A DNA stretch of 63,966 nucleotides, counting the filler, from Thermodesulfobacteriota bacterium (GTDB lineage: Bacteria > DASVDK01), in NCBI GenBank assembly GCA_036381125.1. It is 8 parts of 8 records of this genome, joined end to end, with 100 filler letters (N's around TTAATTAATTAA, not from the genome) between each part and the next. Parts side by side here need not be neighbours in the genome. Positions count along the whole stretch, not along the records: positions 6,639 to 24,107 come from DASVDK010000146.1; 7 more parts are not named here. One strand, given 5' to 3'. Positions within the stretch are counted from its first letter, which is position 1; each line of letters begins with the position of its first letter. Of this stretch, positions 8,677 through 17,528 are shown one piece after another. The notes under the pieces are model-generated. The model was not told the DNA's origin, made no database searches, and saw nothing but the letters and a program-made list of their open reading frames with translations. The translations under genes and the position numbers were made by a program.

Positions 8677-9813
8677 GTGGACGCGCTCGTCTTCCTCTGG
8701 CCCGCCCTGGCCGCCGGTCTCGTCCTGGCGGGCATCCACGCCTACCTCGGTCTTCACGTTCTCGTGCGCGGCGTCATCTTCGTCGATCTGGCGCTCGCCC
8801 AGGCGGCGGCGCTCGGCGCGGCGGTGGCGACGCTGGCGGGCCACCCGTCCCAGGGGGCGACGACCTTCGGCTACTCGCTGGCCTTCGCGCTCGGGGGAGC
8901 CGGCCTGCTGGCGCTCTCGCGGCAGCGGCACCCGCGTGTGCCGCAGGAGGCGCTCATCGGGGTCGTGTACGTCGTCGCGGCTGCCCTCGTCGTGCTCGTC
9001 CTCGACCGGTCGCCCGAGGGAGCCGAGCGCGTCAAGGGGCTCCTGCTCGGCGACATCGTCACCATCGATGCGGCGCACGTCGGGACGCTGGCGCTGCTCT
9101 ACGCCGCCGTCGGCGCGATCCTGGCCGAGGGCGTGGGACGCCGCCTCGCGATCGGCTGGACCGTGGGGGAGGCCGGCGCCGTGGCCGGGCTCGGCGCCTC
9201 GCTCGCCTTCGACCTGCCGACCGGCGCGGCGATCGTCTCGCTGCTCGGGCTCGCGCTCCTCGGCGTCCTGGCTGCCCGCGCGGCCCTCGGCCCCCGGGGG
9301 CGGCGGCGAGAAAGCCTCGCGCGGGCCGGGCGCGTGGTCGTGGCCGGGGGCGGCATCGCGCTCGCCGCCGCAGGCGCCGGCCTGGCCGCCTTCCCGGCCT
9401 GGAGCTACGGCTGGCTCACGCTGATCGAGCGGGCGCTGCCGCTCGTCGAGACCGCCTTCCTCACGCCGGCCGAGCGGCAGGTCCGCGAGGACACGCTCCG
9501 GACGGCCGCCTGGAACGAGGCGGAGGTCGCCCGACTCGCGGCCGTGCGGGAGGCCGTGCGGTTCGGGGCGCGGACCATGGACGCCGAGGCCGAGGACCGG
9601 CTCCGGCAGTACCTCCTCGCGCGGCAGGAGATCGCGGCCGGCGACCGGTTCGTGCTCGCGGCGCTCCGGGGCCGCGCGCGGGCCAGGCAGCGCTTCGTCG
9701 TCGGGGTCCCGCTCGTCGTCGGCGGCGTCGCTCTGGCCTTGTGGTCCGTCCGGCAGCGCTATGGGAGTGGAAGGGCGGGGTTGGTGCCCCACTCTAAGGC
9801 ACGGATTAGCTGA
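8677..9813 (+). CDS. Metal ABC transporter permease (ZnuB-like) with probable internal deletion and C-terminal extension
   Basis: YLGLHVLVRGVIFVDLALAQ, PQEALIGVVYVVA and FDLPTGAAIV. The conserved central segment appears to be missing at about 9110. Confidence 0.7.
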   Translation: MDALVFLWPALAAGLVLAGIHAYLGLHVLVRGVIFVDLALAQAAALGAAVATLAGHPSQGATTFGYSLAFALGGAGLLALSRQRHPRVPQEALIGVVYVVAAALVVLVLDRSPEGAERVKGLLLGDIVTIDAAHVGTLALLYAAVGAILAEGVGRRLAIGWTVGEAGAVAGLGASLAFDLPTGAAIVSLLGLALLGVLAARAALGPRGRRRESLARAGRVVVAGGGIALAAAGAGLAAFPAWSYGWLTLIERALPLVETAFLTPAERQVREDTLRTAAWNEAEVARLAAVREAVRFGARTMDAEAEDRLRQYLLARQEIAAGDRFVLAALRGRARARQRFVVGVPLVVGGVALALWSVRQRYGSGRAGLVPHSKARIS

Positions 9814-12800
9814 TAAGGCCTCGACTCAAGGCACGCTGCTGCTCCCACAGTTCAATGCTACGGAATATCGTATGCTCTGCCAACGGAAGCAAAGCCAAGC
9901 GAGGTCTCAAAGCCGCCCTGAGTTTGCGAAGGACCCGGCTCACCAGACGACCAGTGGTCAGGACAGTGAGCACCAAGTCAAGTACCGCCAACTTCTGGTG
10001 ATACAGCGCCTGTTCCAGCCAAACGGTTCGTATTAGACTAGCCAGTATGACTACGGCTCGATCCTCATCGCATTCCGGCCCTTGTAGCAGATCAAAGACT
10101 CGGGCTGTCTTTCGGTCGACATTCATTTCTCCATCAAGTAGCATCCCGAGTAGCGTTTCCGCATCGACGGACAGGAAGTGATAGTTGCCGCCCACGAGCT
10201 TCCTTATCGCATCCCGGTATCCTTTCGCTTCTAGCAGGCCGCGATCCCGCATGGCCTGCAAGACTGTTTGGGTCCAGAGCCCGTCCACGCCCCACTCAGC
10301 TTGTGCGACACGACGAAGTGCGAGGTCGTCGGCGTAAAGCGGCGCTCCATGTTCGCTCGCAACTAAGGCGGCCGCCGCGGAGGCTTTCCCAAGAACTTGC
10401 TCAAACTCCTCCAATCGAGCCTTGCCCAGGGTTAGAGCCGCGGATACAGGCACAACCTGCGCGCTCGATGAGATAAACTGGAGGATCGTCTCAGGCACCG
10501 TTCTCCTTCGTGTCCATGCCTCGGGGCTGATCTCCTCGTGTACGTATCGGTCTCCGATCCTCGCCAATGTGCCGGCGGGTGGTGGCAACATGTCGTCTTC
10601 GACAATGGCCTCTGTAAGAGCATCGATCACCGCCTGCGGCACGAGAAGCCGTTCGACGAGCTTCGGCAGTAGCGGCAAGAGGTTGAGGTAGTGAATCCCC
10701 AAGAGGGCCGTTAGATCGACTACTATCGTCCGCGCCGTAGCAAGCAGTTCTCTTTCTTTTGCGAGCTCCTCGGCAATACCTCCCGAAGCCACGAGACGGG
10801 CTTCTGGCATCGAAATCAACCCCATCCAGGTGTCGATCAGGCTACTATGAGTCGCCTTTGCGACAGCGCCAAGAGGGAACTGTCCCGTGCGATGGAGCTT
10901 AACAGCCGCCTCCACCTGACGCGCACGCGCATCGACCGCAGCGAGGATCTTCGAGACATCGCCTTCGGCTATTTCGAGTCGATGCAAGCCTTTGTTCTCG
11001 GGGAACCATGTGGTGAACGTACTGAACGTCTCCTGGAAGGCGAAGACGTATTTGCTCTGCACGTCGACGACCTCATAAGGCGGCTCTTCGAATGGCTCGC
11101 TCCTCAGAGACACACGGCCCCCTTTGCGGAGTCCCAAGAGTCTCTTCGCCAAAGGATCATCCAGGGCAAGCTCGCAACGCTCTAGTTGGGGAGTTCCCTC
11201 TGCTAGAAGTGTAAAGTGCCGTTTCTCTGCCCCGCGCCTAAGGTGGACAGTGCAATCGGGAACAACATGATCGACGGACAGGACCGCCTCGTCTGATTTC
11301 TCATGGGCGAGAAACAGCCCTGCGTACTGCAAGTGGATCTGCGGGTCGTTGAACCCAATGCGCCGCGCTAGGTATGCGAGCGCCAGGGCACCATCGAGTC
11401 CAAGTAATCGACGCGCCTGTGCGACCTCCATAAGCGCACGGGCGTTCTGTTCGATATCTTGCCTTCTGATGGAGGTGACGAGCGTGCGAGCGGAATCCCG
11501 ATCACCCATCCGAATGTCCAACTTAACGAGGCGCAGGCGGTGCTCAATACGGTCTGGTTCGAGGGCCGCAAGGGCAGCTGTTAACTTTCTCGCCTCTCGG
11601 ATATCGCCGATGTACTCGAGAATGCGCGCCTCGACCTCGGAGACGACGGGTATAGGGCCAGTGTCTCCACGAATGCTCTTGGCGATGAGAAACGCCTCGC
11701 GTAGTGAACCCGAGTTGAGCAGGCTGATTAGATATTTCCGAAGAATAGGGTTGTCGCGCTGGGTGTCGGCGATACGCCCAAGCGTCTCTGCCGCTTCTGG
11801 ATATCGCTGTTGCTCGTAGTACAGAAGACCGAGATCGAGAGCGATTCTCTCGCTTTGAGGCCCTGATGAGTATCCAAGAGCTTCGCGGAGAAGCTCTATC
11901 GCTTCGTCTGGACGCCTTTGGGCCCGCCGGCAACGAGCTGCTGCCGCCAGTGCCTCGGGGTCGGCTGGCCAGGTCCGACTAATGGACCGAAGCACCTCCT
12001 CGGCGGCCGGCATATCGCCGTCTTCGGCAAGGGCGACGGCAAGTATCTCGGATATCACGAGTTGCTCAGCGTCGTGGAGGTCGGGACGCCAAAGCCGCCT
12101 GAGCAGGGTCGCGGCGTCCGCCGGTCGTCCAACCCGTCGGAGGGTTTGAGCTACAAGTGCCGCGATATCCGGATCGTCCTGTCCCTGTGGGATGCGCTGG
12201 AGAGTCGCTAATGCCTCTTCCGCCTTCCCGGTCTCGAGAAGGGCCGACGCTTTGAGCTTGCTGGCTCGACGCTGTGAGGCATCGAGTAGCAGCGCCCGGT
12301 CGCAATCAGCGGCTGCTTCTTCAGCTCTTCCAAGAAGGAGACGCACGGCTGCGCGGTTCGTGAGAGCGTCACTAAGGCGTGACGGGCTCTCGTGGTCCTC
12401 AAGTAAGACCACGGCTCGCGACAGTGCCTCTTCTGCTCGCTCGGCTGGGTCACGCTGGGCCGCCGACAATCGCCAAGGGAGGGGAGGGTTCGAAGCTATG
12501 GACTCCTGTACCGGATTGAAGAGCGCTTGGGCCAGTAGCGCATGAGCGTCAGGATCCTCCGGCTGCTCCTGGACAGCTCTGCGAAGGAAGGGCATCGACT
12601 CGGCGTATCGGCCTCTACGATTCCAAAGCTCACCAAGTACGAGAGCGCATGTCCCGTCAGCGGCTATCCAGGGTTCGGCTGCGAGAAGGTCTTGAATCTC
12701 GTCCGTGTGGCCTAGTCGATCAAGCGCTTGAATATAGACAGCCCTAGCTTGCGGGTCGTTAGGGGCGAGGCCTCTGGCTTCAGTGCTCAGCCGCCTTGCC

Positions 12801-13702
12801 TCCTCTAGCTCGTCTCTGAGGAGGGCGGCAGTAGCTGCGTTCGTCAGCGCCGTTGGATGACCCGGACGCAACGCCAATGCGACATCGAACTGCCGAACGG
12901 CAAACGTGGTATCGCCCAGTTGGAGCGCACACGCCCCAAGGTTCGTGGCAAGCCGGAACGCGATGTCGACTGAAGGTGAGGTATCGCCGATCTCGGCACG
13001 AACGGCCTCCAACAGTTGGCGTGCGCTGCGGGCGCGTCCGCGGATGAGTAGAGAGCGGGCCGCGTCGATCTTGGCGTGTACCTTAAGGTCCGAGGTCTCG
13101 CGAGCCCGGCCGGAGTCATCTGGTGGAATACGAGGAGCCAGATCGCTTGCAGGTGCCCTTTGCATCTGGATTTCGCGGAGCGATTGGCGCTGTAAATCGA
13201 GCAGTTGCTGAGTTGATTCGTCAACGCGGCTGAGAATGTCTGCCGCGCGCGCCTGTCGATCTAGTACCGCTGAAGTCAGCACCTCTGTTCGGGCTGCTAA
13301 GGTTGGCAGTCCCTCGTCTGTCTTGAGTAGTTCATACTCGAGGTGCTTCGCGAATGTCGTCAGGATTTGGTGTGCGGCCGCGCGGCTATCGCCGGCTGCT
13401 TCAAGTTGCGTTTGCTGGATGAAGCCGTCAACGAGGTCCACGTCGACGATGTCGCGATCGCCGGCCCTGAGGCGCTTCACAGTGCGCTCAAAGTCGGCGC
13501 TGCCGATCCAGGCTTCAAGAGCGAAGGTCACGGTGAGTCGCGTGATTGGAAGGTCGCCACAGTCGGCTTGCGTAGCAGCGATAGCCCGTCGTACCGGAGG
13601 GGTGCGAACCAGTGCCGCGAAGCCGCCCCTAGCAGCGGCGCTGATGATCGGGCTAGCAACCTTCCAGAGCAGTTCAGTTAGCGTTATCCCGTCAAGCATC
13701 AC
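9806..13702 (-). CDS. TPR-repeat / GreA-GreB-C-like / PIN-domain protein, candidate antiviral or conflict protein
   Basis: Many TPR-like repeats (about aa 210-800). LALDDPLAKRLLGLRKGGRV is GreA/B-C-like. TIVVDLTALL...LLVPQAVIDAL and LYADDLALRRVA are PIN-like. GC is visibly lower than the flanks. Confidence 0.75.
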   Translation of the reverse strand: MMLDGITLTELLWKVASPIISAAARGGFAALVRTPPVRRAIAATQADCGDLPITRLTVTFALEAWIGSADFERTVKRLRAGDRDIVDVDLVDGFIQQTQLEAAGDSRAAAHQILTTFAKHLEYELLKTDEGLPTLAARTEVLTSAVLDRQARAADILSRVDESTQQLLDLQRQSLREIQMQRAPASDLAPRIPPDDSGRARETSDLKVHAKIDAARSLLIRGRARSARQLLEAVRAEIGDTSPSVDIAFRLATNLGACALQLGDTTFAVRQFDVALALRPGHPTALTNAATAALLRDELEEARRLSTEARGLAPNDPQARAVYIQALDRLGHTDEIQDLLAAEPWIAADGTCALVLGELWNRRGRYAESMPFLRRAVQEQPEDPDAHALLAQALFNPVQESIASNPPLPWRLSAAQRDPAERAEEALSRAVVLLEDHESPSRLSDALTNRAAVRLLLGRAEEAAADCDRALLLDASQRRASKLKASALLETGKAEEALATLQRIPQGQDDPDIAALVAQTLRRVGRPADAATLLRRLWRPDLHDAEQLVISEILAVALAEDGDMPAAEEVLRSISRTWPADPEALAAAARCRRAQRRPDEAIELLREALGYSSGPQSERIALDLGLLYYEQQRYPEAAETLGRIADTQRDNPILRKYLISLLNSGSLREAFLIAKSIRGDTGPIPVVSEVEARILEYIGDIREARKLTAALAALEPDRIEHRLRLVKLDIRMGDRDSARTLVTSIRRQDIEQNARALMEVAQARRLLGLDGALALAYLARRIGFNDPQIHLQYAGLFLAHEKSDEAVLSVDHVVPDCTVHLRRGAEKRHFTLLAEGTPQLERCELALDDPLAKRLLGLRKGGRVSLRSEPFEEPPYEVVDVQSKYVFAFQETFSTFTTWFPENKGLHRLEIAEGDVSKILAAVDARARQVEAAVKLHRTGQFPLGAVAKATHSSLIDTWMGLISMPEARLVASGGIAEELAKERELLATARTIVVDLTALLGIHYLNLLPLLPKLVERLLVPQAVIDALTEAIVEDDMLPPPAGTLARIGDRYVHEEISPEAWTRRRTVPETILQFISSSAQVVPVSAALTLGKARLEEFEQVLGKASAAAALVASEHGAPLYADDLALRRVAQAEWGVDGLWTQTVLQAMRDRGLLEAKGYRDAIRKLVGGNYHFLSVDAETLLGMLLDGEMNVDRKTARVFDLLQGPECDEDRAVVILASLIRTVWLEQALYHQKLAVLDLVLTVLTTGRLVSRVLRKLRAALRPRLALLPLAEHTIFRSIELWEQQRALSRGLIS

Positions 13703-14106
13703 GATCGCCTCAGTGACTACGGTTCGGGTGCACCTAATAGATCCGTCCCGGACCCGGTAACCGTTGCCCTACCTCCCGCACCGCGCATCACCGGCTTCTG
13801 AAAGTTCTTGCGCCGGCCGCGTGACACGCGATCCACAAGCCGTACCGTGATGAGAGACGCAACCGCGAGCTTCTTGGAAGCGCTGAATCTTTCAGGGTTC
13901 GCAAAGCCGCCACCCGCGTTCTCCTACTGGCAGGAGGAGCCGGAGCAGGGGGGACCGTGAGATAGATGCAGTTCCCGCTCACAGCGTAGCTCGGCCGACA
14001 GCCCGCCCTAGAACCTGTTATGCACCTCCCGCTGCCGGCATCCGAACGATTCGGGCCAGCGCGAGACCGGCGACGGCTATGAGACCGAGTCCGACGCCCT
14101 CGCGGG

Positions 14107-15312
14107 CTACGGCGGCTGCCAGGCCGACGCCCAACTCGGTCCGGACCGAGTTCGCGTCGGGTCGGTGGCCCGGCACGCCGTGGCGTAGACGCGCCCCGGC
14201 TCCCGCACCAGCGACGGGCCCCAGGGGCCGAAGACCTGCTCGGCTTCGTAGGCGTTGTGCGCCCGGCAGCGCAGCTCGATGTTCTCCGCCGTCGCCGGCC
14301 CGCCCGCGGCGTAGGGCCGCACGTGGTGGAACTCGAGCCACCCGCGCTCCGTGCACCGGCGCCCCTTTGGGCTCACGAAGGCGCACCGCCCGCCATCCCG
14401 GGCCCAGACCGCCCGCCTGACCGCCGCCGGGACGTGCCGCGAGCCCGGGGTAGGCGTCTTGCCCACCCGCGGCCGGTCGGTAGCCGCGGCTTTCTGCTTC
14501 AAGAGCGCCTCGACGAGGACGGTGAGGGCGCGGTCGAGGACCTGCCCGACGTCCCCGTCGGGGATCTGGTGGCGCAGCAGGTCCTGCGCCAGCCGGAGCT
14601 TGGCATGGGTCTCCGCGCTCGCGGTGAACTGGACCTTGTAGCGCGCGGGCGCCAGGGGCGCGACGATCGGCGGCCGCGCGGGCGGTGCCGGGGCGGGCGC
14701 CGGCGGTGCGGCCGCCGGCGGTGACGAGGCGTGGTCGCCACCCTGGGGCGAGCGGGACCCCGTCGGCAGCGGCGCATCGCCCGGGATCGGGGGCACGGAC
14801 GGGCGGACCGCCGGCGCCTCGGCCGGGGGCGAAGGCGCCGCGACCGGTGCCGTCCGCGGCGTCGGCAGGCGGCGGACCGAGGCGGGCACGGGGGGCTGGG
14901 GGCGGAGCGAGGCCACCAGGACCTCGACCTCGCGCCGGCTCTTGTGGCGGGCCCGCGCCAGCAGGTCCCGGTGGTTCTCAGGCGTGAGGTGGGCCGCGAG
15001 TAGCCCGACGGCGGTGAGGGTGACCGACCCGTCGGCGAGCCGGTCGAGGACGACGGGATAGCGTCGCGCCACACGAGCCGCCTCGATACGCCCGTACGCG
15101 GCGTGCTCGGACAGGTGGAGGCATTGGGTGCAGTAGGCGAAGAGCGACGGGTAGCCCTCGGCCAGGTAGAGGCGCCGCGCGTCGAGTTCGGCCAGGTGGG
15201 CGATCAACGCGACGGTCGCCTCGCGCTCCTGCGCGGCAAGCCGGGCGACCTGGGTGAGGAGGTCGGCGTCGGAGAGTCCAGTGAGAGAGGCGAGTCTGAT
15301 CGTCGGAGCCAT
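14107..15312 (-). CDS. DUF222-like N-terminal domain plus HNH endonuclease
   Basis: Helical N-terminus (LAELDARRLYLAEGYPSLFAYC), a Pro-rich linker, and C-terminal VRRAVWARDGGRCAF...RRC...LEFHHVRPYAAGG...NIELRCRAHN. GGAG RBS. Confidence 0.85.
   Translation of the reverse strand: MAPTIRLASLTGLSDADLLTQVARLAAQEREATVALIAHLAELDARRLYLAEGYPSLFAYCTQCLHLSEHAAYGRIEAARVARRYPVVLDRLADGSVTLTAVGLLAAHLTPENHRDLLARARHKSRREVEVLVASLRPQPPVPASVRRLPTPRTAPVAAPSPPAEAPAVRPSVPPIPGDAPLPTGSRSPQGGDHASSPPAAAPPAPAPAPPARPPIVAPLAPARYKVQFTASAETHAKLRLAQDLLRHQIPDGDVGQVLDRALTVLVEALLKQKAAATDRPRVGKTPTPGSRHVPAAVRRAVWARDGGRCAFVSPKGRRCTERGWLEFHHVRPYAAGGPATAENIELRCRAHNAYEAEQVFGPWGPSLVREPGRVYATACRATDPTRTRSGPSWASAWQPP
14133..14152. repeat. 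Perfect 20-bp palindrome, copy 1 (inside the 3' end of the HNH gene)
   Basis: AACTCGGTCCGGACCGAGTT. The stem can extend with CCGACGC (14124-14130) and GCGTCGG (14154-14160). Confidence 0.9.
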
Positions 15313-15527
15313 GCTCCGTTTCTATCATGAGGGTTTCGGCAGGCTCTCCACGTGCCCCTGTGCGATGCGCGCCGCCCCGATCGGCTGGTGCGCCTCCGGT
15401 CGCGCAAACCGCGCCTGGCGGCCCATCCTGGGCCGCGGAGGGCCGATCTACGGGCGAACCATCGCGCGCTGCAGGCTCGCCGTGCGCGCTGTCAAGGATT
15501 TTTTCGAGGTCGTGCGTGTATCACCGC

Positions 15528-15547
15528 AACTCGGTCCGAACCGAGTT
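15528..15547. repeat. 20-bp near-palindrome, copy 2 (upstream of the HNH gene)
   Basis: AACTCGGTCCGAACCGAGTT, one mismatch to copy 1. It is flanked by a pairing C and G. Confidence 0.9.
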
Positions 15548-15611
15548 GAGCCGCTCGGCGGGCCGGTACCGCGGGGAATCAGTGAGCCCGCGAGCAGGAA
15601 GAGCGCGCCCC

Positions 15612-17528
15612 TCACGCGGCCCGCGCCCGCCGCCCCTCGATCGCCTGCCAGCCGAGGACGAGGGCGAACCCCGCGAGCCCGGCCGCGTCGGCCACCGGGT
15701 GGCCGTACACCAGGGCGAGCCCCGAAGCGACCAGGATCACCCGCTGCGGCCAGGAAGCCCGGTGCAGGAGGAAGCCGCCCGCGCCTGCCACGAGCGCCCA
15801 GATCCCGGCCACCGCGGTGCCGACCGCGAGCACCACCTGCGGCGCGGGGCCCTCGAGCAGCAGGCCCATCCCCTCGGGCGTCAGGACGAACATGAACGGC
15901 ACGACGAAGGCGGGCAGGGCGTACTTCCAGGTGATCCACATGGTCCGGTACGGGCTGCCGCCCGTGATGGCCGAGACGGCGAAGCAGGAGAGGGCGGTCG
16001 GCGGCGAGACCTCCGAGAGGAGCGCGTAGTAGAAGATGAACATGTGCGCCGCGGCCTCGGGGACGCCCACGGTCTTGAGGGCCGGCGCCAGCATGACCGC
16101 CGCGATGATGTAGGACGCGGTGATCGGCAGGGCGAGGCCGAGCACGAGGAGCGCCAGGGCCGTGTAGAGCGCAGTGAGGAAGAGGCTGCCGCCCGCGAAC
16201 TGCACGATGATGCCGGAGAACTTGAGGCCGAGGCCGGTCAGGTTCACGACGCCGACCAGGATGCCCGCCACGGCGCAGGTTGCGGCGACCGGCAGGATGG
16301 CGAGGGCGCCCCCCTCGAGCGCCTTGAGGAGCTTCGGCGGCGTCAGCATGGTGTCCCGCCTGAGGAAGCTCGTGGCGACGGCGACGGCGATGCACCAGAA
16401 GACGGCCCACATCGCCGAGAAGCCCATGGCGAGGAAGACCACGATGGCCACCAGGCTCGTGAAGTGGAACCAGTACCGGCGAACCAGCGGCCCGAGCGCC
16501 GGCACGTCCAGGTCGACCCGCCGCTCGCCGATCGTCCGCGCGTCGAGCTCGATCATGAGGAAGATCGAGAGGTAGTAGAGCACCGTGGGGACGATGGCCC
16601 ACTGGATGACCTTGAGGTACGAGACCTGCGTCAGCTCGGCGATGATGAAGGAGGCCGCCCCCATGACGGGGGGCGAGAGCACGGCGCCGATGCCGCCGGC
16701 GGAGAGGACCGCCCCGGCCGCCTCGCGCGAGTAGCCCGCCTGCCGCAGGAGGGGGAAGGTCACCGAGCCGAGCGTCACGGCGGTCGCCACGCCGCTGCCC
16801 GAGGGGCCGCCGAGGAGGAACGAGGCGAGCGTCACGGTCCGTCCCGGACCGGCCCTCTTGCGCCCCATCGCGGCCAGCGAGAAGTCGACGAAGAACTTCC
16901 CCGCGCCCGACTGGTCCAGGACGGCGCCGTAGACCGTGAAGAGGATGATGAAGGTGGCCGAGACGGCGATCGGCGTCGAGAAGATGCCCTCGAGCGTCAT
17001 GTACTGGAGTCCCACCACCCGCTCGAGGTCGTACCCGCGGTGCCCCCAGGGGGCCGGCAGCCAGGTGCCGTAGAAGGCATAGGCGAGCGCCAGCACGGCG
17101 AGCGCCGGCAGCATCCAGCCGGTGGTGCGGCGCGCCGCCTCGAGGACGAGGAGGATGGTCGCCACGCCGAAGACGACGTCCGCGGGGTCCATGAAGGACG
17201 CGCGCTCGACGAAGCCGTCGAAGTCGACGACCACGCGCGACATGGCGGCGGCGCCGATCAGCGCGAAGGCGAGGTCGAGGAGCGTCGGCCGGGCGGCGCG
17301 GTAGGCGGGGTAGAGGAGGAAGACCAGCGCGAGGACGAGGCCCACGTGGACCATGCGCATGATCTGCGCCGGCACCACGCCGACGGCTGACCAGAGGCCC
17401 CAGAGGCTCGTGGCCACGGCGAGGAGGCCGACGAGGCCGCGCGGCCATCCGTGGAGCTTCCGCGCCCCGCCCTCGTACTTCTCCAGGATCTCCTGGACCT
17501 GCGCCTCGTTCAGGCCGGGCTCGGACAC
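15612..17528 (-). CDS. TRAP transporter fused permease (4TM/12TM, TAXI-type)
   Basis: Highly hydrophobic, with LEAARRTTGW, GIFSTPIAVSATFIILF, PPVMGAASFIIAE and AAHMFIFYYALLSEVSPP. GTG start with an AAGGAGG RBS. Confidence 0.9.
   Translation of the reverse strand: MSEPGLNEAQVQEILEKYEGGARKLHGWPRGLVGLLAVATSLWGLWSAVGVVPAQIMRMVHVGLVLALVFLLYPAYRAARPTLLDLAFALIGAAAMSRVVVDFDGFVERASFMDPADVVFGVATILLVLEAARRTTGWMLPALAVLALAYAFYGTWLPAPWGHRGYDLERVVGLQYMTLEGIFSTPIAVSATFIILFTVYGAVLDQSGAGKFFVDFSLAAMGRKRAGPGRTVTLASFLLGGPSGSGVATAVTLGSVTFPLLRQAGYSREAAGAVLSAGGIGAVLSPPVMGAASFIIAELTQVSYLKVIQWAIVPTVLYYLSIFLMIELDARTIGERRVDLDVPALGPLVRRYWFHFTSLVAIVVFLAMGFSAMWAVFWCIAVAVATSFLRRDTMLTPPKLLKALEGGALAILPVAATCAVAGILVGVVNLTGLGLKFSGIIVQFAGGSLFLTALYTALALLVLGLALPITASYIIAAVMLAPALKTVGVPEAAAHMFIFYYALLSEVSPPTALSCFAVSAITGGSPYRTMWITWKYALPAFVVPFMFVLTPEGMGLLLEGPAPQVVLAVGTAVAGIWALVAGAGGFLLHRASWPQRVILVASGLALVYGHPVADAAGLAGFALVLGWQAIEGRRARAA

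Follow-up and report, generated by a model that had tools for sequence, protein, structure and literature searches.

The REP13E12 repeats of mycobacteria, which carry DUF222-HNH genes, are the closest known relative of a compact cassette found in a 63,966-base stretch of DNA from a Thermodesulfobacteriota bacterium (assembly GCA_036381125.1), hereafter the window. In this cassette an HNH nuclease gene, P0001, is bracketed by two copies of a 20-bp palindrome, and the window copy is apparently a member of a multi-copy, long-lived family of selfish cassettes of 1.3-1.5 kb that resides in uncultured soil bacteria. REP13E12 of Mycobacterium tuberculosis is likewise a multi-copy unit, encoding a protein of two domains, of which the N-terminal one is helical and of DUF222 type and the C-terminal one an HNH, and its length is said to have been put at about 1.4 kb by Gordon and colleagues in 1999. 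In the excerpts of the literature at hand, REP13E12 (or 13E12) figures as a family of repeats, bound by LexA, with copies that drive inversions (PMC10589994, PMC3381160, PMC13157036), and is regarded as an 'insertion element' (PMC3381160, PMC10589994). No mode of spread is established for it.

Like REP13E12, the cassettes described here form a repeat unit of about 1.3-1.5 kb that is present several times per genome (2-6 loci, and 3-12 matches in five genomes). However, the Pfam DUF222 model is not reached by the proteins of this family, the hosts are uncultured Armatimonadota, Acidobacteriota and allies, and the LexA control of 13E12 genes was not found before the cassette gene in the window lineage. 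Nor was a described conserved terminal palindrome found for REP13E12, which was compared by its description and not by its DNA. Searches of the literature, with supplements outside their scope, returned no description of a palindrome paired with an HNH gene, and no occurrence of the palindrome string.

A second point of comparison is the REP-RAYT (REPIN) system, where, according to the partial accounts at hand, a nuclease gene lies between presumed cognate palindromes, with further copies elsewhere and long vertical persistence. The differences are that the enzyme here is an HNH and not an HUH/Y1 nuclease, that the gene is multi-copy whereas RAYT genes are typically single-copy, and that the palindrome is rare, with 8-16 copies per genome and not hundreds, about half of them at genes. 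We regard as about evenly poised the reading of the window copy as a selfish cassette with a dimeric nuclease that reads the palindromes at the cassette's own termini.

Palindromes at both ends of the HNH gene

The 3' palindrome of the window copy, AACTCGGTCCGGACCGAGTT, is perfect and lies at 14133-14152, within the tail of the P0001 open reading frame (ORF) and nested in a longer hairpin. The 5' (upstream) palindrome, AACTCGGTCCGAACCGAGTT, is one mismatch from perfect and lies at 15528-15547, 215 nt 5' of the start codon. An earlier reading made from the sequence alone (the sequence-only reading) had singled out these two 20-mers, and they are indeed the sole matches in the window, as only two sites for AACTCGGTCCGGACCGAGTT exist at up to 3 mismatches, against a mean of 0.00 in 100 dinucleotide-preserving shuffles. 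The pair matches over 21 nt as direct repeats, and over 24 nt, at 92%, as inverted repeats. P0001 (401 residues; 14107-15312, minus strand) is separated from the upstream palindrome by a non-coding leader of 215 nt (15313-15527, minus strand), and at its other end the ORF runs through the 3' palindrome, which is translated as ..TRSGPS.., to a TAG stop 24 nt further on. Both the leader and the read-through had been noted beforehand, and the latter is a habit of the family.

The palindrome bracket is a family trait and not a peculiarity of the window locus. Out of 8000 scored candidates, a protein search yielded more than 6000 relatives, with a typical identity of about 60% and in many cases on contigs of 1.4-3 kb, and 80 related loci from species-representative genomes (169 confirmed relatives) were compared together with the window. 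These loci come from metagenome-assembled genomes labelled as Armatimonadota, Acidobacteriota, Gemmatimonadota, Eiseniibacteriota, Planctomycetota and others. With up to 4 mismatches allowed, an upstream zone of 100-450 nt before the start, and enough flank required, an upstream palindrome is present in 36 of 72 testable loci, and a 3' palindrome in 53 of 75. Both palindromes are present in 25 of 67 loci and neither in 12, and several of these 12 have variant forms at the expected positions, with one inserted base or with additional symmetric changes. The palindrome-to-palindrome length among family loci is 1291-1479 nt.

That homologues are consistently flanked by the palindrome, which the sequence-only reading had put forward as a test, is evident in the proteins as well. 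In a 23-member alignment the C-terminal tails are otherwise unconserved, yet they hold TRSGPS, QLGPDRV or SVRTE, which are one 20-mer translated in its three frames, and a palindrome-encoded pentapeptide is found, in all three frames, in 92 of the 120 top homologues (86 in the C-terminal tail, 6 in the linker). The ORF runs through the 3' palindrome in 46 of 55 loci, with the stop inside the palindrome in 7 and before it in 2, and the distance from palindrome to stop ranges from 3 to 469 nt. Because the palindrome is read in three frames, is run through by the ORFs, and lies at varying distances from the stop, it is conserved as a DNA-level element and not as a protein motif.

Within the gene itself, a half-palindrome, CGGACCGAGGCGGGC, lies at 14873-14887, in the conserved codons for PASVRR with which the N-terminal domain ends. 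At the same place, L011 (3507), L017 (3453), L031 (3456) and 6 of 120 homologues have a full palindrome, in frame and at the start of the hypervariable linker.

Hairpins at gene ends bring to mind ordinary terminators, or a genome-wide REP-type repeat that flanks the gene by chance. Both window palindromes fold as hairpins, and their positions favour this view, as the upstream DctM gene stops 65 nt before the right one and the HNH ORF ends at the left one. However, no T-run follows the palindromes, and neither of the two terminator-like sites called in a scan coincides with them. Moreover, the DctM gene of the close relative G005, 94-95% identical to that of the window, is without a palindrome, and 20/20 of the palindrome sequence is kept across phyla while the proteins are only 55-70% identical. 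Added to this is the low number of copies, only 8-16 per genome with half at HNH genes, and such an origin for the palindromes is very improbable.

The pattern of substitution indicates that the site is under selection for its symmetry. Among 92 palindrome instances (84 distinct), which were chosen by their likeness to the palindromic consensus, mirror positions pair in 92.9% of cells, and changes affecting both arms account for 24 cells, against 6.5 in shuffles, a number that was reached by 0 of 500 shuffles. Compensatory changes are present at 7 of the 10 mirror pairs, and symmetric variants recur at both ends of one element, as seen for GGTTCGAACC, GTTCCGGAAC, CTGGG..CCCAG, CTAGG..CCTAG, and a TTCGAA centre. 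The window's own pair is mixed, with TTCGGA upstream and CCGG downstream, and its nearest relatives have TTCGAA. Copies within a genome keep the palindrome almost unchanged at a synonymous divergence (dS) of 0.13-0.66. On the sense strand, G:T and A:C mismatches are about equally frequent (32 and 22, respectively), and this lack of strand bias fits recognition of a duplex or cruciform better than recognition of RNA or of a single-strand hairpin. These substitution patterns, together with the structural predictions for P0001 described below, suggest that the palindrome is probably the nuclease's own binding site.

Copies, remnants and element-free loci

In five genomes of relatives, a sample that does not include the window's own genome, the palindrome is present at 8, 8, 16, 9 and 12 sites (up to 2 mismatches), with 0 sites for a reversed-pattern control, and the same genomes have 6, 3, 11, 12 and 6 HNH matches. 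Cross-tabulation of the site and HNH tables places 25 of 53 palindrome sites at an HNH match, or 21 of 44 if G004 is set aside. G004, which contributes to the five-genome counts and to L009, L014, L016, L020, L040 and L042, is unpublished, as is G128 (L011, L019). Five further genomes have 1-15 sites each at up to 1 mismatch. Being rare and found at HNH matches in nearly half of its occurrences, the palindrome is strongly linked to HNH genes, as the sequence-only reading required of a mobile element, and is not an unlinked genome-wide repeat. In addition, the 80 loci include 2-6 per genome, with unrelated flanks, in agreement with the proposal of a selfish element present in several copies. 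At the level of BLAST, plasmid and phage collections hold no match to the P0001 family.

Where alignments between copies reach the ends, homology stops at the palindromes, as in the comparison of L006 (2732-4136) with L073 (2717-4128), and of L017 with L031. For such copies the palindrome marks the limit of homology, as would be expected from the sequence-only reading, but in the window lineage the homology between copies spans 14095-15560, and so extends 38 nt past the 3' palindrome and 13 nt past the 5' palindrome. In this lineage the last 38 nt of the element (14095-14132, minus strand) consist of a conserved tail, ..SWASAWQPP, the TAG stop, and a few further bases, such that the conserved tail and stop of P0001 fall within the inter-copy homology. 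The 13 nt on the other side (15548-15560) form a short outward extension, GAGCCGCTCGGCG, with a small second hairpin, that is common to the copies and the solo palindromes of G005.

Palindromes that stand alone provide a view of how the cassettes decay. Of 21 solo sites, 3 retain 65-120 nt of 5' leader, 7 retain 24-60 nt of the 3' inner end, and 11 are bare; judged from these adjoining sequences, 10 of the 21 are terminal stubs of decayed elements and not naive targets. Decay is also evident in L112 (G005:C277, 1298-1909), an internally deleted copy in which the equivalent of window position 15028 is joined to that of 14310, with the loss of 717 bp and retention of the 5' part and the 3' palindrome. 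Pairs of solo palindromes in G001 and G002 were considered as cassettes with other cargo and rejected, with ordinary genes (DinB, methyltransferase) or nothing recognisable between them.

In two genomes of Acidobacteriota, a module of 45 nt, consisting of the palindrome and a second hairpin, GTTGGCACAACATCGGTGCC, is found alone in intergenic DNA (L081 2940 and 6641, L082 3040, L084 2996, L085 3074, L087 3054), and is identical to the last 45 nt of the local HNH elements. G002 has arrays such as palindrome - 1.7 kb - palindrome - HNH - palindrome, in which the two palindromes around the 1.7 kb are perfect.

Arrays of this type, and the recurrence of stubs made of a second hairpin plus palindrome, would be accounted for if another recombinase (HUH/Y1, Xer-type or integron-like) acted in trans on the hairpin ends, with the HNH protein as cargo or as a retention nuclease in the manner of TnpB/IscB. 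A hairpin-capable repeat at both ends and an ORF that reaches the very end are also consistent with this possibility, as is a weak NCBIfam match to IscB (16.5 bits, where the cut-off is 175) that is confined to the HNH part. IS200/IS605 elements with IscB or TnpB share with the cassette the hairpin-forming sequences near both ends and an ORF extending to the end of the element, and the HNH fold is similar to that of IscB (Z 5.1-5.4). However, the cassette has no TnpA, no RuvC domain and no conserved structured leader RNA, and one perfect palindrome is common to both of its ends. Genes for Y1_Tnp are found in only 3 of the five genomes, never beside a palindrome, and none is present in G002 (6.5 Mb, in long contigs) or in G005; the analogy to HUH enzymes drawn by the sequence-only reading thus fails at the level of the enzyme. 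A Pfam scan of P0001 reveals no recombinase family and no RuvC domain, which agrees with the absence of a recombinase motif reported earlier, and no tyrosine recombinase domain is present in the scanned ORFs adjoining the element, where IntI was not searched for systematically. With a leader that lacks structured RNA and a palindrome that lacks strand bias, mobilisation in trans is quite unlikely.

Comparison of orthologous loci in relatives reveals joint presence or joint absence of the gene and its palindromes. For L073, the flanking gene and a tRNA-Asp/tRNA-Phe pair are retained in 7 relatives, all of which lack the HNH gene as well as the palindrome. This interval measures 1667 nt in G003, and 253 nt and 248 nt in two relatives; the 1414-1419 nt by which they differ is close to the palindrome-to-palindrome unit of 1412 nt, with intergenic DNA too diverged to place the junction. 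These lengths suggest, for the L073 locus only, mobility as an exact palindrome-to-palindrome unit. The HNH element of G003:C176 lies 122 nt upstream of the tRNA-Asp/tRNA-Phe pair (L073 4250-4409), which is 91-95% conserved across relatives. In none of 15 element-free loci from relatives is there a palindrome, even at up to 5 mismatches. The palindrome therefore comes and goes with the gene, and no pre-existing palindromic target was seen at these loci, which gives no support to the suggestion that the protein duplicates such a target; many solo sites, as noted above, are stubs.

A cassette shared by two genomes has diverged unevenly in place. In G002 and G063 (L085 4600-6800 and L125 3350-5320) the element occupies the same locus, with flanks that are 93-96% identical, and is a mosaic, with an identity of about 90% for the leader and N-terminal half, 71-77% for the HNH half, and about 46% for the linker. 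The homology ends at the 3' palindrome, and G002 has an extra 1.7 kb between two perfect palindromes.

For the window copy itself, the DctM locus of G005 was considered as an empty site and rejected, as the homology ends at window position 15601, 41 nt outside the end of the inter-copy homology, other genes follow, and the contig is 6.5 kb. The DNA past the DctM stop in G005:C147 (L100 3467-4966) is unrelated to the window and has other genes on the opposite strand. A 28-mer from the end of DctM gave 0 matches in a metagenome scan, and L006 was set aside for synteny, its left flank being itself a multi-copy gene.

Free-standing HNH homing endonuclease genes of phages are similar to the cassette in being selfish HNH genes with their own promoter that decay in place. 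Unlike these genes, the cassettes lie in unrelated intergenic chromosomal sites with no conserved host target gene interrupted, and element-free loci, which are from other species and have unalignable intergenic DNA, show no recognisable target.

The P0001 protein and a proposed mechanism

From its N- to its C-terminus, P0001 comprises a DUF222-like/ParB-like domain, a variable linker rich in Pro and Ala, a helical region, and the HNH nuclease domain. The last of these (residues 296-361; 14230-14427, minus strand) is supported by Pfam, by the family alignment and by fold matches. P0001 itself scores 19.2 bits for HNH (PF01844), under the cut-off of 21.4, and PF01844 is found in 23 of 23 family members, with a best E of 6.8e-06. 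The residues C310, C320, H329, H330, H352 and N353 are invariant in the alignment, and the C-terminal part of the model matches HNH nuclease folds at Z 5.0-5.5 (5h0o 5.5, 6ghc 5.4). A sequence search of the PDB gave weak HNH hits only (best E 0.074), and a Foldseek search of the PDB with the whole model gave nothing at E of 0.001 or below.

The term 'DUF222-like' used by the sequence-only reading does not hold at the level of Pfam, but has support at the level of fold and features. Not one of the 23 family members matches DUF222 (PF02720), even at E up to 10, and one G003 copy reaches 17.7 bits against a cut-off of 24.4. In the ESM Atlas, however, 22 of 30 feature hits for the N-terminal domain fall in a set whose cluster has PF02720 in 42% of its members, and rows 9 and 10 of the structure search are actinobacterial DUF222 clusters (TM 0.69 and 0.67). 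The AlphaFold model has a confident helical N-terminal domain (residues 10-147, pLDDT about 90; 14872-15285, minus strand), with putative roles in DNA binding and dimerisation, followed by a disordered, hypervariable Pro/Ala-rich linker (residues 150-230; 14623-14865, minus strand) and the HNH domain.

Among representative structures, the DNA-binding domains of ParB (with parS), KorB and Spo0J rank 1, 2, 3 and 5, with Z scores of 6.9, 6.9, 6.0 and 5.7 that are below 8, the level of trust for helical domains, and are suggestive only. The matches extend over residues 26-138 and include 6s6h (ParB DNA-binding domain with parS; Z 6.9, rmsd 2.9, 96 aligned), KorB 8qa8 (Z 6.9), 1r71 and 1vz0. The ParB-parS and KorB-OB systems are thus the best structural match for the DNA-binding domain, and a dimer acting on a short perfect palindrome would fit them. 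In contrast to these systems, the match is limited to the DNA-binding helices, no CTPase or ParB N-terminal domain is seen, the domain shares its polypeptide with a nuclease, and the sites lie on either side of the gene that encodes it.

A structure prediction supports the formation of a homodimer by P0001. The predicted pair scores 0.83 against 0.00 for the best of three controls, with a partner pLDDT of at least 68 and agreement between runs in at least 69% of contacts; the mark used is reached by 20 of 30 solved homomers and by 1 of 23 monomers. The predicted interface is formed by a long helix (15-48) together with helices 222-274. Over the whole aligned ORF, the ratio of nonsynonymous to synonymous divergence (dN/dS) is 0.20-0.37 in 8 of 9 pairs, the ninth (0.68) being a partial alignment.

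Palindrome recognition is something we infer from the ParB/KorB-like fold, the predicted homodimer, and the compensatory changes in the site. In the proposed mechanism, a cassette with the order palindrome, promoter-bearing leader, nuclease gene, and palindrome would encode a symmetric homodimer, whose DUF222-type, ParB/KorB-like N-terminal domain would read the two-fold symmetric 20-bp palindrome at each end of the element and so position the HNH active sites at the ends. There, binding or cutting would serve the spread or retention of the cassette, for instance by break- or nick-induced copying of the palindrome-bounded unit, and binding to the palindrome may also throttle expression of the cassette's own gene. 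Through decay, elements would be reduced to terminal stubs (the palindrome with 24-120 nt) or lose an internal part. Binding, cleavage and the way in which the cassette moves are steps that we infer.

Several observations weigh against this mechanism. No near-identical copies are present, with nucleotide identity within genomes at 64-91%, and there is thus no sign of recent movement. The tree follows the host phyla (1 change for Armatimonadota, 6 changes for Acidobacteriota), which indicates mostly vertical persistence. About half of the loci are without a recognisable upstream palindrome, no target-site duplication was seen, and no empty site could be aligned at the nucleotide level among the relatives compared. 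At 3 of 4 compared loci the missing segment exceeds the element, at 2.8, 2.28 and 2.33 kb, the first of which includes a neighbouring isochorismatase-like gene, with a 150-nt HNH remnant kept in one relative. No junction reads were found, and contigs of 4 sequencing runs compared with 12500-17500 include no circle junction; the only contig joints over this region have sides of 20-55 letters, are unrelated to the palindromes, and are evidence neither way. The resemblance to ParB and KorB falls below the level of trust given above, and, to our knowledge, HNH nucleases do not carry out strand transfer.

At one of the loci with a longer missing segment, insertion appears to have recurred. Compared with its close relative L141, L029 (1911-4984) shows three separate insertions into a 50-nt intergenic stretch, 413, 279 and 2330 nt long, and the HNH element lies in the last of them.

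A stronger version of the selfish-cassette reading is possible, though rather unlikely. Here, the cassette would be a new class of autonomous mobile element, in which a dimeric HNH nuclease with a ParB-like head cuts its own palindromes and drives copying or relocation of the unit with no DDE, HUH, tyrosine, serine or Cas1 enzyme, and the same logic would extend to the REP13E12/DUF222-HNH repeats of actinobacteria.

Leader, surroundings and significance

The leader contains two conserved blocks. The distal one, with an A-tract followed by TTGACA (15490-15505, minus strand; family consensus CTTGACAGGTTT), keeps a nearly constant distance of 164-186 nt to the start, and its TTGAC is invariant in 36 of 36 aligned leaders, in none of which is a -10-like hexamer found 16-18 nt downstream. 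The proximal one, TGATAGAAA (15319-15327, minus strand), is an extended -10-like box 6 nt 5' of the ATG, for which the family consensus is TGnTAtAA, at 6-9 nt before the ATG. Sequence and position of this box suggest the extended -10 of a leaderless mRNA; a consensus scan called no full sigma-70 promoter. The possibility that the leader is a structured RNA, a guide RNA or a small ORF was rejected, as there is no Rfam match, RNAalifold finds 0 consensus pairs on 36 leaders, and no small ORF is conserved.

The position of the 5' palindrome upstream of this promoter region is one of several points that would suit a purely regulatory role, in which the palindromes are operators or insulators for the protein, after the pattern of KorB-OB or ParB-parS, or for a host factor, and the gene encodes a stress or defence nuclease that is kept by the host and spread by ordinary duplication or rearrangement. 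The lineages of the gene are old and intact, evolve under purifying selection and for the most part track the host phyla, recent copies are lacking, and a ParB/KorB-like fold with a predicted dimer would suit an operator-binding protein. In addition, the mycobacterial relatives are regulated by LexA, according to the part of that report at hand (PMC3381160). However, autoregulation has no need of a second, identical, co-varying site at the 3' end, and the palindromes set the limits of homology between dispersed copies. Intergenic DNA contains scattered stubs and deleted copies, there are orthologous loci that lack the gene together with both sites, and there is no SOS box of the G005 lexA type before the HNH gene. 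An exclusively regulatory role is therefore unlikely, and the selfish cassette remains our preferred reading.

With respect to LexA, one of two lexA genes of G005 (L135, G005:C357) has a GAACacatGTTC box about 50 nt before the start of the lexA domain. Boxes of this type are usual in Gram-positive bacteria. For this box and in this lineage only, the 300 nt 5' of the start codon were searched, and contain no GAACacatGTTC-type sequence (up to 1 mismatch) in the window copy, L001 or L002. The regions upstream of lexA in G001-G003 have, by eye, no obvious motif in common with the HNH leaders.

In the window, Pfam identifies the neighbours of the cassette as a TPR-GreAB-C-PIN gene and a gene for a fused TRAP DctM transporter. 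The former encodes a 1298-residue TPR protein (9806-13702, minus strand) that contains the PIN domain of the TPR-GreAB-C-PIN system (PF20698, 1.5e-18). The G+C content of the element, at 75%, is similar to that of the window (72%). The stretch 12000-14094 has a G+C content of 62% and may mark an acquired island adjoining the cassette.

Knowledge of multi-copy DUF222-HNH genes dates back to the M. tuberculosis genome, and in the portions of the literature at hand their mode of spread was never worked out. What the branch described here adds is a DNA site that is short, perfectly defined and protected by evolution, that frames the gene on both sides, and whose natural variants co-vary with the lineages of the protein. 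With a defined site and natural variants, the question becomes directly testable at the bench, by binding, cutting and specificity swaps. If the protein does read and cut its own ends, it would be a new class of nuclease among the enzymes of mobile elements, and the family would be a source of compact, sequence-specific, dimeric HNH nucleases with natural variants in specificity. Should the sites prove to be operators only, the result would still account for how thousands of unannotated genes in soil metagenomes are built.

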